Source: Eledone cirrhosa (lineage: Eukaryota). From it: 64,000 nucleotides of DNA. Each line of letters begins with the position of its first letter. The first letter of the stretch is position 1. Shown here piece by piece: positions 3,659-63,960 of the stretch. The DNA lies in NCBI GenBank assembly GCA_964016885.1, contig OZ024758.1, positions 27,094,001-27,158,000 on the forward strand, written 5' to 3'. Position numbers and translations under genes: made by a program. The notes under the pieces are model-generated. The model saw only the letters and a list, made by a program, of their open reading frames with translations, was not told the DNA's origin and did no database searches.

Positions 3659-3809
3659 TAGAAGTGGTTACACAACAGTTATTTCACCATACCGAGAACA
3701 ATTGTTCTCGGTATGGTGAACTAATTGTTGTGTAACCACTTCTACCTAACTCGTCCTATGGACTGAGTGCTCTACCACTACGGATATTACCTTCCAGTGT
3801 ACTACCACT
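3659..3809 (+). mobile_element. Penelope-like pLTR fragment: fold-back palindrome plus tail
   Basis: Near-perfect palindrome 3659-3744 centred on GAACAATTGTTC. The arms carry a GAAAT-AACT-GTT-like ribozyme 3' half and the tail has GAGTGCT (3765). Flanked by (TA)n. Confidence 0.55.
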
Positions 3810-3933
3810 ATATATATATATATATATATATATATATATATATAATGGAAAAATTTGAACAGGGACAAAACAGAGAGGCAGTACAACGAATGTTTATTAA
3901 TTTCACGCTCTGGAGAGTGGGGTGTTGGTGGGG

Positions 3934-3968
3934 GACGACGTTTCGGGCATAAGCCCTTCCTCAGGTGA
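3934..3968 (-). ncRNA. Minimal hammerhead ribozyme core (weak stem I)
   Basis: Minus strand reads CTGAGGA-A-GGGC-TTAT-GCCC-GAAAC-GTC with AATAAA downstream. The island lies between (TA)n tracts. Confidence 0.6.
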
Positions 3969-4307
3969 GAAGTGTGTGGGAACAGAGTTCTATATATATA
4001 TATATATGTATATACATGTATATACATATACATATATATATATATATATATATATATATATATACATGTATATACATATACATATATATATATATATATA
4101 TATATATATATAAAAGATGTAAAATAAGAAAATTAAAAAAAAAATTTTTTTAAATTAACTTACTAAAATTATATATATATATATATATGTGTGTGAGTGT
4201 GTGTGTAGTATGTATACGTATATATATATATATATGTATGTATATAATATATGTATTTATATATGTATGTAGTATATATTATATCTATATATATATATAT
4301 ATATATA

Positions 4308-5235
4308 GGGGAATTCTTTGATGCCACAGAACTCCACGAAGAAATGGCGACCATCAGCCACATAGATATAACGGAGGAAGATGTAATATCAGCCATAGAA
4401 GAAATGAAAGCAAACTCAGCTGATGGGCCTGATAGATTCCCAGCAATCCTAAAACATGCAAGCGTGCCTTAGCAAGACCACTGAAGATCCTCTTCCGAAG
4501 TTCTCTGAGCTAAAAGCAGGTGTAATATGCCCTATCCATAAGGGAGGATGCAGAGGCTAAAAATTACAGGCCAGTCTCCCTCACATATCAGTAAGTTCAT
4601 GGAGCAAATCATCAGAAAGAAACTGATCACGTTCCTCGAGGAAAATGATCGCTTAACTAACACTCAGCATGGCTTTCGCCAGGGAAGAAGCTGCCTTACA
4701 CAGCTTTTACAACACCACCACTGGGCCCTGAAACAACTGCTGGGCAGCTCAAATGTGGACGTGATATATCTTGACTTTACGAAGGCCTTTGACAAAGTCG
4801 ACTGTCGAATCATATGTTACAAACTACACAGATTCAACATAACTGGAAAAGTAGGTGAGTGGCTGCATGACTTCTTAAAACACAGAAGCCACTATTGCAA
4901 CCAACGGGGCCCTCTCAAAGGAAACAGCAATAACAAGCGGGGAGCCCCAGGGCATGGTCTTAGGACCACTACTGTTTGTGGTGGCTCTTTCAGACATGCA
5001 CAGGCAGTCAAGAACCCAACTGATGCTACTCTTTTACAAGATCTGGATGCCATGTAGAAATGGGCTGAGGACAACAACATACAACTTAATGTTGGAAAAT
5101 TTCAAACCCTACGATATCAACCTGCTAACGCAAGGAAAGTGCAACAAAGCTACACCAGACCAGAAGGGATCAAAATCCCCTTGTCGAAATCGATACAAGA
5201 CCTGGGTATAGACATGAGCGACGATTTATGTATCT
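4308..5235 (+). pseudogene. Decayed CR1/L2-type LINE reverse transcriptase fragment
   Basis: Frameshifted motifs ADGPD, NYRPVSL, QHGFRQGRSCLTQLL, DVIYLDFTKAFDKV, PQGMVLGPLLF, LQDLDAM and QDLGI. Confidence 0.9.
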
Positions 5236-6058
5236 GCTATGTTAGAGTGAAACTTCAATTTCTAATTTTGTTTATATATATATATATATATATAAATATA
5301 AATATATATATATATAAATATATAAATATATATATATTATATATATATATATAATATTTAACTCTGTCCACTCACCACCAACAGAATCTTACACCAAAGA
5401 TGATTGAATTGTGTCAGGTTGAATGCTTTTCATATTATTGCAGCATGGTTAACTACACAAAATGAAACGTTCTATCCAGTGGTGAACCACTAACTTCAAT
5501 CAATGTGTGTGTGTGTGTGTGTTTATTGATGTTAGAAGTCCTGTTGTTATTGTTACACTCTTCCAAAATCTTTTTTAATGTAGTATAAGTTGTTGTTGTT
5601 CTTGTTGCCACTATTGTTTTCTCCTTGGTAACGTTATTACTTTTTTTGTATTTTTCAAAATCATGTCCTCTTTGAACTGAAAGGTAAATTTAAATATTTC
5701 AGAGAATGGGCGAACATTCCCTAGGAGTTTAGAGTTGAAAATCTATAAGATCCTTTACCAACTCCCTGACATATCTTTCGTGCTGTGTTTACTAAATATG
5801 CTTTTCTGACGATCATTAATTGTGTTTTCGTCCAAAACACAATATTTTTCTGACAGCCCCCAAACAAATTAAGCTACTGTCCTTAAGAATTTTTTCAGAA
5901 ATTTCATTGAAATGACAAATAATCAATATATTCCTCATTTGTAGTTTCTACAGCATTTCATCAGTTCAACGGAGATCATTTGTTTCGGTAGATAAAACGA
6001 TAAAGGTATTCGAAAGAAAAGAAAATGTTGAAACTGAATATAAGGGTAAGCTGACACT

Positions 6059-6487
6059 CGTATGTGTAAGCTGAAAAGTTCAAAGGCTGACTATGAAGGA
6101 CTGACGCTAGAGCTGTGAAATCTTGCATGTATTAATTTCAACACTTATTAATAAATGTATTGTTTCTTTCTAGGGATTATGTTGAAAAATAAACCTCATT
6201 CGGTCATTCCGTGAGAGAATCTTGGTCAGCCTATAAACTTTTCAGCCAATACTCGTAGGTGCGTGTGTGTATATATGTAGGGGAGGCTGAAAAGTGTGTA
6301 TATATGTAGGGTAGGCTGAAAAGTTCATAGGCTGACTATTAAGGGGTGATGCTAGAGCTGTGAAATCTCGCATGTATTAATTTCAACTTTTGTCTCTTTC
6401 TAGGGACTATGTTGAAAAATAAACCTAATTTAGTCATTCCGTGAGAGTATCTTGGTCAGCCTATTAACTTTTCAGTCGATCCTCGTA
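6059..6487. mobile_element. Two tandem mariner-like MITE copies
   Basis: TIRs GGCTGAAAAGTTCATAGGCTGAC / GTCAGCCTATRAACTTTTCAGYC..CTCGTA with TA ends. Same family as 55378-55480 and 60657-61058. Confidence 0.7.
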
Positions 6488-61058: not shown

Positions 61059-61254
61059 TTCATCAGTCATTACACGTGCACGTTAATATTTTTGAATATT
61101 TTCATCATAAATTCAACATTTCAGTATTATTCTAAAATACCTTTAAACTCAAAATACTTTGATAATTATAAATATGTTCTTCATAAATTCAACGTAACTT
61201 TTCAGTATTATTTAAAAACAATTTTAAACTCAAAATACTTTGATAATTATAAAT

Positions 61255-61443
61255 AATTGTTTCTATTTTAGGCACAAGGCCAGCAATTACCCAGTACATT
61301 ACATGTACTTTATTTTATCGACCCCGTAAGGATGAAAGGCAAAGTTAACCTCGGCGGGATTTGAACTCAGACTGTAAAGAGACGTAACTATGCTAGAAAG
61401 CATGGCGTCCAATCCTCTACCGATACTGCCAATTTACCGCCCT
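61255..61443 (-). mobile_element. MetaSINE-like element
   Basis: Matches the family consensus. A further fragment lies at 61545-61601. Confidence 0.85.
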
Positions 61444-61689
61444 GCATAATTATAAATAATTATGATAATTATAAATAATGATAATGATAATTATAAATAA
61501 TGATAATGATAATTATAAATAATGAATGCAGATATTGTAATAACTGTTTCTACTTTTGGCACAAGGCCAGCAATTACCCAGTTCATTACTGGTACTTTAT
61601 TGTAATAACATTCACATATATTACAGACTTCAGATTTGAAACCTCGTGGGCAGGCATTGTTGGAAGCATTGTTTGGCAACAGTGGTAGT

Positions 61690-61975
61690 ATGGTAAGGGT
61701 GTAGACCCCTTGGGTCACGAAAGACCATGGGATTCACACCTAGAAAGTTCCCCGGGCAAAGTTGTTTCTGGAAGACCAGCAGTCGCCCATGCATGCCGGT
61801 TTCCCCTCTCCACGTTACTGATGTTGTCCAAAGGAAAGGCAATGGTCGATTCAGCTTGGCACCAGTGACGTCGCAACTCATTTCTACAGCTGAGTAAACT
61901 GGAGCAACATGAAATAAAGTGTCTTGCTTAAGGACACAACACATCACACGGAATCGAATTCACAGCTTCGCAATT
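61690..61975 (-). mobile_element. tRNA-derived SINE with a CORE-like box
   Basis: Minus strand reads GTGTTGTGTCCTTAAGCAAGACACTTTATTTCATGTTGCTCCAG. The head is shared with the 12727 family but the 3' part differs. Confidence 0.7.
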
Positions 61976-63616
61976 GCATGTCCATGCATTGCATTTCCAG
62001 ACACAATCAAATTATATACCAGTAAACCATGCGTCTTGTATAGAAGATGCTTTTTTAAATTAATTTCTACTGGAGTCATAAGCGTATTGCTCCTATCATT
62101 TTAGGGGTGCAGACATTCATAATTTTCTGACAAAAATGACTAAATGTTCCAACAGCTTTTTTTTTGGTGGAGCAGCTCCTCCCCCCTATCAATACGCCAC
62201 TCTCTAATTGTTCTTGTTGCATGTCGACAGAAATTTCCTTTCATAGGATAACTCCTCCCACACTCATACATATGTATATATATCCAGAGAGAAATCAAAA
62301 ACCGATGAGGCTACGCATAATTCTCACATCTACAATTATTATGCAAGAGAGTGTGCAACTTAGTGTAATCATTAGAATATTAATGAGTGTCTCACTGGGA
62401 ATACAACTATTACAAATAGTCTTTCTCTTTCGAATAAAATTATTGCCTCAAAAAACGCAAAGGTTTTAAATATATTCAGATAGCAGTTGTACACTAATTG
62501 CAACTAGTAGAGTAATAAAAGAATACAGAATAAAGAATAAAAGAATGAAATAATAAAAGAATAAAGAATTTAAAAAATGAAAGAATAAAAAATGAAAGAA
62601 TAATTTATGTACGAACATCATCTTTCAGACACAGGCTCAGTATTTCTTAAATGCAGAAATGAATAAAGCTACAAAAATAAAGAGTTAACCAGAAAGTTCT
62701 TTATTTCAAGATATGAAGAAAAAGGTAGTGGTAAAATAGCTCAGTGGTCGAGAAAAATTAATCGCCTAATCTGTAGTTCTTTTACAAAGAAGAAGAAGAA
62801 GAAGAAGAAAGCATCTAATACTAAAAATTATAGAGTAAAAATAATGTCTGTAGTATATACTGATTACAACATATGAGATGGGAAAATACAAATAAAATAG
62901 TTTAGAAAGAATGGAAGTTATAACTCAAAAGAAAATGGCGAATGAGGAGGAAGAGAAGATGAAACACGTTATACAAGTGTGTGAAAGACGTTGATGAAGA
63001 ACTGGGACTAAAGTGAAGCATTAACATTTGCTTGAATAACCAGTTTTATCACATCTCTCGTTAGATCGACAATATCTAACGATAAAATCAACAGCCATTA
63101 CTATAGCAATTCCAATAGCAACAAACATGTCTTCATAAAAAAGATATATGTAGCATAACGTTTCACCTTACAATTGCATCTAAAAAGACGTCAATAAATC
63201 AGGAAATATATGAGCACGGGCGGGAAAAAATAAAAAAAAGGACACTTCTGTATACGTTCTTGTATCTTTCTATCTAGTGAATGTGTTAAAGATAGGTTTG
63301 TATGAATGTATGTATGCACCAATGTGTTCAGATGATAGCTAAGGTTATGAGTATAAGCCTATTACAAATTATAAATATACTCGGCTGAATCCACATGTCA
63401 AGTCAGAATGATAAATGTGTATACCCACAACCTACTACCTGAGATTAATGAGTTACGAATATTTCTTATACTATAAATACTAGCCTTGAATTGCATCTGG
63501 TATAAATTCATCAGAGTAAAGTGCCTGTCATATTTCCAGACACAATCAAATCATATACCTTCTGTTTTGAAGGCCAAATGAAAGTATATATATATATATA
63601 TATATATATATATATA

Positions 63617-63960
63617 TAATATAATAAAAAATCAAAAGATGGTTAAAAGAGTTCCATGTATTTTGTGACTTCGAAGTTTCTGTTTGGTTACTTCATCTGT
63701 GATGCGCTTCTGTATATGTACGGCAACTCTCAAAATGTAGATGCAGTCATCATACACACAAACACACACATATATACTATATATATATATAGAGTGTCCA
63801 CCCAAAATGTATACACATATTTATTAGAATACTTTTAAAACTCTTTTAACCATTTTTTGATTTTATATTATTTATACTCCAGTCCTATAAACTGTTGAGT
63901 GCTACTTATCCGATATATGCATTGCTTTATTGTGCTACAATAAAACTCACCTCCTACACA
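63617..63960 (+). mobile_element. PLE family D fragment (inverted end plus tail)
   Basis: Homologous to 16551-16592 and 16850-16970. The tail has GAGTGCT at 63898 and (TA)n lies on both sides. Confidence 0.7.

Follow-up and report, generated by a model that had tools for sequence, protein, structure and literature searches.

The Hydra clade of Penelope-like elements (PLEs) is marked, in the portions of Craig et al. (2021; PMC8557442) covered here, by a C-terminal GIY-YIG endonuclease, a DKT motif, a CxCx5C linker, the lack of a CCHH motif, a hammerhead in the pseudo-long terminal repeat (pLTR) and (TA)n targets; the same portions give the tails of PLEs generally as 30-40 bp and ascribe them to endonuclease resolution. 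For the anole Poseidon element PAc, the part of Frangieh et al. (2024; PMC11167929) covered reports that the reverse transcriptase (RT) begins at two internal positions flanking the tail and uses both target strands, that targets are AT-rich, that a dimer is predicted and that sequence 3' of the start sites is required. Passages of two further papers describe a tail on only one of the inverted pLTRs (PMC3846280) and propose a circular or tandem template (PMC4209133). The Hydra clade, the tail and the two start sites are already known; unexplained so far are the choice of internal start sites by Penelope-like RTs and the asymmetry of the copies, which have a tail at one side and an inversion at the opposite side. 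We have analysed a stretch of 64,000 nucleotides from Eledone cirrhosa (contig OZ024758.1, positions 27,094,001 to 27,158,000; hereafter the window, meaning the whole stretch) and find in it a real and apparently undescribed twin RNA signal of this known retrotransposon clade: in Hydra-clade PLEs, two predicted hairpins that lie between the hammerhead and the ATG likely position the RT-endonuclease to start copying at two points.

The window is rich in (TA)n, in a host genome of 3.0 Gb, and many of its short elements are built as a (TA)n run, an inverted arm, a direct arm, a tail and a further (TA)n run, often with hammerhead cores inside. A first-pass annotation had proposed that a GAGTRCT 7-mer recurs about 28 nt into the tail, past the point where the inverted copy stops, in unrelated pLTR families. 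We find that the words it listed are mostly real and that GAGTRCT is the 3' arm of a predicted bulged hairpin, RCTC-stem-loop-stem-TN-GAGY-RCT, which runs 5' to 3' through RCTC, an inner stem, a loop, the inner-stem partner, a 2-nt bulge beginning with T, GAGY and RCT. It is this hairpin, and not the 7-mer at a set distance, that forms the unit. Among the 14 families with a positive copy in the stretches outside the window described below, 12 have the 5' arm starting at +7 to +9 from the inversion boundary, and the GAGY word starts at +26 to +85; within the window, the outlying word at 25305 follows an arm at +8 and a loop with a long insert, its GAGT lying at +85. The outer arms change in concert, as ACTC/GAGT, GCTC/GAGC, GTTC/GAAC and GCAC/GTGC.

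Words are present as listed at 3765, 16909, 20959, 21913, 45720, 25305, 10193, 21672 and 22514 on the plus strand and at 20022-20028, 34498-34504 and 17489 on the minus strand; the minus-strand site at 7432-7438 reads GAGTACC, and the word given at 63898 starts at 63897. Re-measured from inversion boundaries located by self-BLAST (the boundary at 63868 was placed by analogy with a sister copy), the offsets (+23, +29, +31, +31, +28, +29, +33, +21, +40 and +85) lie near the earlier values. Several of the sites taken to be unrelated are sister copies (16909/63897; 21109/21913/45720; 10193/20028; 17489/21672), which leaves about eight independent families in the window. The word at 7254 falls out of the set: its family is Neptune-type, and the other copies there have GAATCTT or AAATCT instead. 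We also considered the tail word as a partner of hammerhead stem III and rejected this, since by eye stem III varies (ACTC/GAGT, ACAG/CTGT, ACTA/TAGT, ATGC/GCAT) and the tail word is constant.

The geometry of the unit bears on one function proposed for the word, that of a downstream core-promoter element about +28 from a transcription start at the boundary. The Penelope pLTR of D. virilis does have an internal promoter with a word of the downstream promoter element (DPE) type, according to the part of PMC2377424 covered, but the DPE word quoted there, RGACGTGY, differs from the GAGY word. Moreover, the fixed part of the element described here is the 5' arm at +7 to +9; the word floats with loop length, the stem and its upstream arm covary and the whole element occurs twice, and we give a promoter function almost no weight.

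The position of the word in tails is far beyond chance. Within the window the bare GAGTRCT is mildly over-represented (16 occurrences; 200 local shuffles gave 9.15 on average and 18 at most). Outside it, we collected inverted-repeat-plus-tail elements without regard to the motif from 127 stretches of 10 kb, 20 of them adjacent and the others at round coordinates, which yielded 86 elements in 28 tail families. The literal word marks six of the 28 families, compared with 0.17 in shuffled controls, and the hairpin descriptor is matched by 46 of the 86 elements and 12 of the 28 families, compared with 0.08 in shuffles (maximum 1 in 300) and none on the antisense strand.

Every hairpin family that could be tied to an open reading frame (ORF) is a Hydra-clade PLE, as judged from sequence motifs rather than from placement in an RT tree with named references. 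Most small tail families have no ORF assignment, and links between family and endonuclease by mere proximity were left out as too noisy. In the family of the word at 16909, open frames of 808 aa (L157) and 803 aa (L159) are each a single ORF that has an RT together with a C-terminal GIY-YIG endonuclease, for which there are 48 homologues at E<=1e-20 and, in a Pfam search, no match. The protein has DKT and, as its RWK-type motif, RLRWI (DKT or DKS is found in 42 of 49 proteins, DKG in 3 of 49), a CxCx5C linker, CxxC and CxH around E/N and, by eye, no CCHH, and these endonuclease marks recur in endonucleases joined to five other hairpin families. Its elements end in TA runs, and the hammerhead cores in the pLTR, which are predicted ribozymes, were found by pattern and were not scored by Rfam. 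The families of 3765 and 21913 run back into Hydra-type endonucleases, and when five further Hydra-type endonuclease copies were chosen by protein alone, four ended in the hairpin, three of these belonging to families already met and one being new, with an outer mismatch.

Conversely, the Neptune-type family of 7254, assigned by motif, follows a frame of 965 residues whose linker is CxxxxCxxC and whose endonuclease is of the CCHH type, and none of the family's seven copies has the hairpin; two more tail families without the hairpin adjoin non-Hydra endonucleases. The motif is tied to the Hydra clade and is not common to all pLTR families. A hairpin that follows a Neptune-type tail in L052 was set aside, as it belongs to a separate repeat. 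In the fifth family picked by its endonuclease (L051), which lies outside the count of four, the 3' region exceeds about 3 kb, and copies of a young Hydra-type family (L175-L188, L237-L243) share more than about 3 kb of microsatellite-rich 3' sequence. In L161-L174, the best 40 matches to the endonuclease of one Hydra family show no difference over 331 nt (100% identity), which suggests very recent activity.

Distant relatives point to conservation of the pairing itself. A search with 30 aligned proteins brought up 78 metagenome and 17 genome-bin loci, which we take to be animal DNA in those assemblies, and no relative was found among the viral contigs searched. Fifty-nine regions upstream of ORF starts reduced to 40 non-redundant foreign junctions, and the proteins behind 34 of them are 32-70% identical (median 47%). 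The 3' word occurs twice in 22 of the 40, once in 10 and not at all in 8, for a total of 54 words compared with 0.58 in shuffles; the words lie 54-82 nt apart, the second being 21-64 nt before the ATG. With anchors for the inner pairs chosen on sequence alone, Watson-Crick pairs were counted in 58/60, 36/56, 30/42, 15/33 and 4/20 cases at inner pairs 1-5 (permuted means 33, 14.7, 11.3, 10.0 and 4.6), and pairing is lost at bulge registers of 0, 1 and 3 nt. A MAFFT alignment of 56 hairpins left both arms unaligned, so that pairs were counted on equal-length subsets of 11 and 9 hairpins; 97% and 94% of their cells are paired, with 14 double-sided cells each, a level reached by none of 500 shuffles. 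On the protein tree, the first hairpin requires at least 5, 8 and 3 independent double-sided switches at inner pairs 1-3. In the foreign junctions the two hairpins also differ at the first inner pair, which is T-A in 16 of the 25 first hairpins and C-G in 23 of the 25 second ones, and this difference may hint that their roles are unequal. Inspection by eye of the published Hydra consensus file, a look at other taxa that the first-pass annotation had recommended, revealed a clear hairpin in three of six sequences (a coral and two sea-cucumber elements, one of them with both copies before the ATG) and variants in a fourth, from a sea louse.

Because the words are doubled in foreign loci, a second hairpin was predicted just past the tail end, and it was then found in the genome of E. 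cirrhosa itself. It lies upstream of the ATG, is visible only at tandem junctions and is present at those of six families, in one of them as a degenerate GCAC/GTGC copy; the spacing between the hairpins in these six families is 72-108 nt. The two hairpins mark where copies end. Among loci that include search-selected ones, the six families gave 287 copy ends running into (TA)n; 270 of these fall 0-16 nt short of one or other 5' arm, with 179 at 6-8 nt. In foreign loci, 30 of 50 rows were left out on account of a TA run in the L373 reference; of the 20 usable ends, 14 lie at -3 to +11 nt from an arm and six lie further away. In addition, the 57 head-to-head insertions of the six families all use both sites, one for each end. 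In eight other families we counted 34 such pairs, one pair with both ends at E and six with both ends at B; the latter six all derive from a tandem repeat of 482 nt, which is not a PLE tail, an explanation that does not extend to the both-E pair. That tandem repeat (L285) has a period of 482-492 nt, a hammerhead-like core and the octamer ATGCAAAT, with a fragment near 48992 of the window and dispersed copies in L014, L027, L030, L034, L036 and L067. It resembles a non-LTR retrozyme and has a likeness to satellite-2.

A fixed distance from structure to end is equally expected from a ruler-type nuclease, and 3'-processing was among the options of the first-pass annotation. It is conceivable that the hairpins direct RNA cleavage or 3'-end formation just upstream, generating two RNA 3' ends for ordinary target-primed reverse transcription. 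Two RNA species should, however, yield pairs with both ends at the same site, of which there are none in the 57 insertions; the anole element starts internally on uncut RNA (in the part of PMC11167929 covered); and Rfam gives no ribozyme match, either in the window at gathering scores or, at E<=1, in L335 and L297. We see only a slim chance for cleavage. Another reading is that the hairpins are protein sites for capture of the mRNA in cis or for translational control, with start sites set mainly by UA-rich pads that pair with the target. The second hairpin does sit close before the ATG, and the pads are enriched at the end points: TAT or ATA is present at -10 to -4 of 21 of 24 first and 18 of 25 second hairpins (39 of 49, compared with a background of 21%). 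Nevertheless, most TA dinucleotides go unused, only 37 of the 171 in the reference junctions falling within the zones that hold 270 of the 287 ends, and this explanation overlaps with start-site positioning by the hairpins, in that a bound protein would sit beside the pads. As a separate account we hold it to be of low probability.

Several observations weigh against the hairpins as start-site signals. The descriptor was derived on 80 of the same 127 stretches used in the enrichment count; by the strict pattern, 18 of the 40 foreign junctions have one word or none, some of them being truncated or variant; two of the six published Hydra consensus sequences are without a clear hairpin by eye; and the inner pairs of the second hairpin vary little (1, 1 and 4 switches). 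The stability of the hairpins is not unusual (z-scores of -1.7 to +0.2); of eight regions, only four have the full fold as their minimum-energy structure. Families with other endonucleases show two fixed ends without the hairpin, which is not a universal PLE signal, and the RT of PAc is reported, in the part of PMC11167929 covered, to start inside a stem-loop and not upstream of one. Lastly, a test of which strand folds is weak, with 13 G-U compared with 6 A-C (permuted values 29.7 and 24.8).

The weakness of the strand test would also suit a signal that acts as DNA, in which the GIY-YIG endonuclease recognizes a single-stranded hairpin or the near-palindrome GAGCACTC and, at a set distance from it, trims intermediates or resolves them. 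The 3' word comes close to a palindrome, with nine antisense matches in the 40 junctions, and the tail of the D. virilis element is needed for endonuclease recognition in work cited by Frangieh et al. (part of PMC11167929 covered). Set against this, G-U is slightly more frequent than A-C, a 2-nt bulge with a free loop is unlike a site in duplex DNA, and the second hairpin lies outside the copied sequence and is absent from new cDNA, which would confine any action of this hairpin to the RNA or the donor locus. We think a DNA signal unlikely, and continue with the hairpins as RNA signals that position the RT-endonuclease.

The motif, its compensatory pairing, its doubling, its fixed distance to both end points, the TA-rich pad and the use of one site per end are observed. 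We suggest that the hairpin fold forms in the sense RNA and that the element protein binds each hairpin, probably with one subunit per hairpin. Both strands of the (TA)n target would be nicked, and each 3' end would pair over 2-4 bases with a UA-rich pad and be extended toward the RNA 5' end. Head-to-head joining of the two cDNAs would then leave a tailless inverted pLTR on one side of the insertion and a tailed copy on the other. The tail would be the stretch between the two hairpins, whose spacing would set its length. Copy ends never include the second hairpin, so that both signals would be found downstream of the copied sequence only in a tandem or circular template. Such a mechanism would fit the start sites of anole Poseidon (PMC11167929), accounts for the one-sided tail of inverted pLTRs (PMC3846280) and agrees with a circular or tandem template (PMC4209133), in each case as far as the part of the source covered goes.

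More tentatively, and with the balance of our judgement on the side of doubt, Penelope insertion may be a built-in form of twin priming. A dimeric RT-endonuclease would clamp two hairpins on one RNA, each subunit priming one target strand at a fixed distance upstream; the spacing of the hairpins would determine how long the tail is, an inverted pLTR would be what insertion normally produces, and a tandem or circular template would be required. Clades of PLEs other than Hydra might work in the same way through structures of their own, and a portable signal for internal, two-ended insertion might then be contained in a cassette of some 120 nt.

Table 1. Positions in the window of first hairpins (hairpin 1), associated pLTR pairs and related tail features
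Feature	Position	Strand	Remarks
Inverted pLTR pair	3661..3742	.	Tail continues to ~3808, ending in (TA)n
Hairpin 1, 1-nt bulge variant, Hydra-type family	3749..3771	+	5' arm at +7 from boundary 3742
Chance GAGTCTT in Neptune-type tail, not a member of the motif	7254..7260	+	Word differs in other family copies
Hairpin 1 (ACTC..TT GAGT ACC)	7432..7453	-	+6 from boundary 7459
Hairpin 1 in tail fragment beginning directly after TA run	10172..10199	+	
Inverted pLTR pair	16553..16880	.	Hammerhead cores 16785(+), 16650(-); intact Hydra-clade ORFs of family in L157, L159
91-nt tail between both end points	16881..16971	+	Hairpin 2 starts 7 nt past tail end in tandem copies L157, L159, L002, L008
Hairpin 1 (ACTC CAGT..ATTG TA GAGT GCT)	16888..16915	+	+8 from boundary
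Hairpin 1, further Hydra-type family	17489..17511	-	
Hairpin 1, irregular inner stem	20022..20051	-	+10 from boundary 20061
Hairpin 1, GCTC/GAGC variant, Hydra-type family	20310..20358	-	
Hairpin 1	20938..20965	+	5' arm ACGC here, ACTC in sister copy L272
Hairpin 1, additional copy of 21913 family	21089..21115	+	
Hairpin 1, Hydra-type family	21893..21919	+	Hairpin 2 at 6 nt past tail end in L259
Hairpin 1, GCTC..TA GAGC ACT variant	22643..22666	+	
GCTC/GAGC-type hairpin, further family	24549..24577	+	
Hairpin 1, long apical insert (outlier, family E of the first-pass annotation)	25228..25311	+	5' arm at +8, GAGT at +85
Hairpin 1	34498..34536	-	+8 from boundary 34544
Hairpin 1	45700..45726	+	+8 from boundary 45692
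Long-insert hairpin, second copy	45856..45922	-	
Hairpin 1, sister of 16888	63876..63903	+	Inner stem perfect CAGT/ACTG

Other features of the window were noted in passing. A variant word, GAGTGCGCT, stands with an apparently shortened hairpin in a tail at 14500-14575 (-), and similar words occur in the foreign loci L292 and L363; these tails possibly represent a Hydra subgroup with a different 3' arm. The broken 3' end of a Neptune-type PLE, a GIY-YIG fragment followed by a pLTR cut at the hammerhead, lies at 15339-15860 (+), and frame fragments of the reverse transcriptase of long interspersed elements (LINEs), named by eye, lie at 4542-5211 and 14787-15149. An abundant repeat family of about 200 nt resembling short interspersed elements is found at 290-488 and about 25 more sites, forms short tandems at 54175-54850 and 57833-58299, and has no tRNA called in it by ARAGORN. 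Minisatellite arrays occupy 34988-38218, 38800-45250 and 56864-57445, the unit at 56864 being 107 nt.

The first-pass annotation is partly confirmed as an observation and partly supported in its interpretation. A cross-family cis element of PLEs is supported, and RT recognition, one of the functions it had offered, is the one we judge best; the complementary upstream arm, the GAGC variants (22643-22666, 20310-20358(-) and 24549-24577) and the second hairpin were absent from it. Like that annotation, which knew of no description of the motif, we found no account of it or of a rule relating hairpin to start site, either in Rfam or in the literature searched, whose coverage excludes most subscription papers and Repbase notes. 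Penelope-like RTs are the closest retroelement relatives of telomerase. A doubled motif with a ruler of 6-8 nt makes their choice of start site directly testable and offers a minimal RNA for structural work, and the hairpin rule lets curators locate the true ends of Hydra elements. If the signal is portable, it would be a compact one for internal target-primed insertion.

The nearest relatives of the elements described here are those of the Hydra clade as defined by Craig et al. (2021; PMC8557442), which share the same coding and (TA)n features and, in four of the six new consensus sequences, the clear hairpin (three) or variants of it (one). The hairpins are undescribed in the portions of that paper covered, main text and supplement, in which the terms 'hairpin' and 'stem-loop' occur zero times, and its general PLE tails of 30-40 bp are shorter than the spacing of 72-108 nt in our six junction families. 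In PAc, as far as the part of PMC11167929 covered goes, two start sites likewise bracket the tail, both target strands are extended and targets are AT-rich; PAc differs in belonging to another clade, in that one AC-rich stem-loop, inside the ORF, is named, and in that neither a conserved or doubled motif nor a rule that relates structure to start is described.

Stem-loops that bring an RT to its template are familiar from other systems. A bulged stem-loop places the RT in the 3' stem-loops of LINEs, the 3' untranslated region of R2 and hepadnaviral epsilon, and each of these signals is present once and works at the end of the RNA or within the stem-loop. In L1 twin priming, both target nicks can prime, giving an inversion, and the second priming has no fixed site. 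The Hydra hairpins are unlike the LINE, R2 and epsilon signals in that there are two of them, one never copied, downstream of two fixed internal sites. Telomerase RNA contains template-boundary elements, in which a structure at a fixed distance limits copying by a PLE-related RT; these lie 5' of the template and set the stop, whereas the Hydra hairpins lie 3' and would set the start, a parallel for which we claim no homology.

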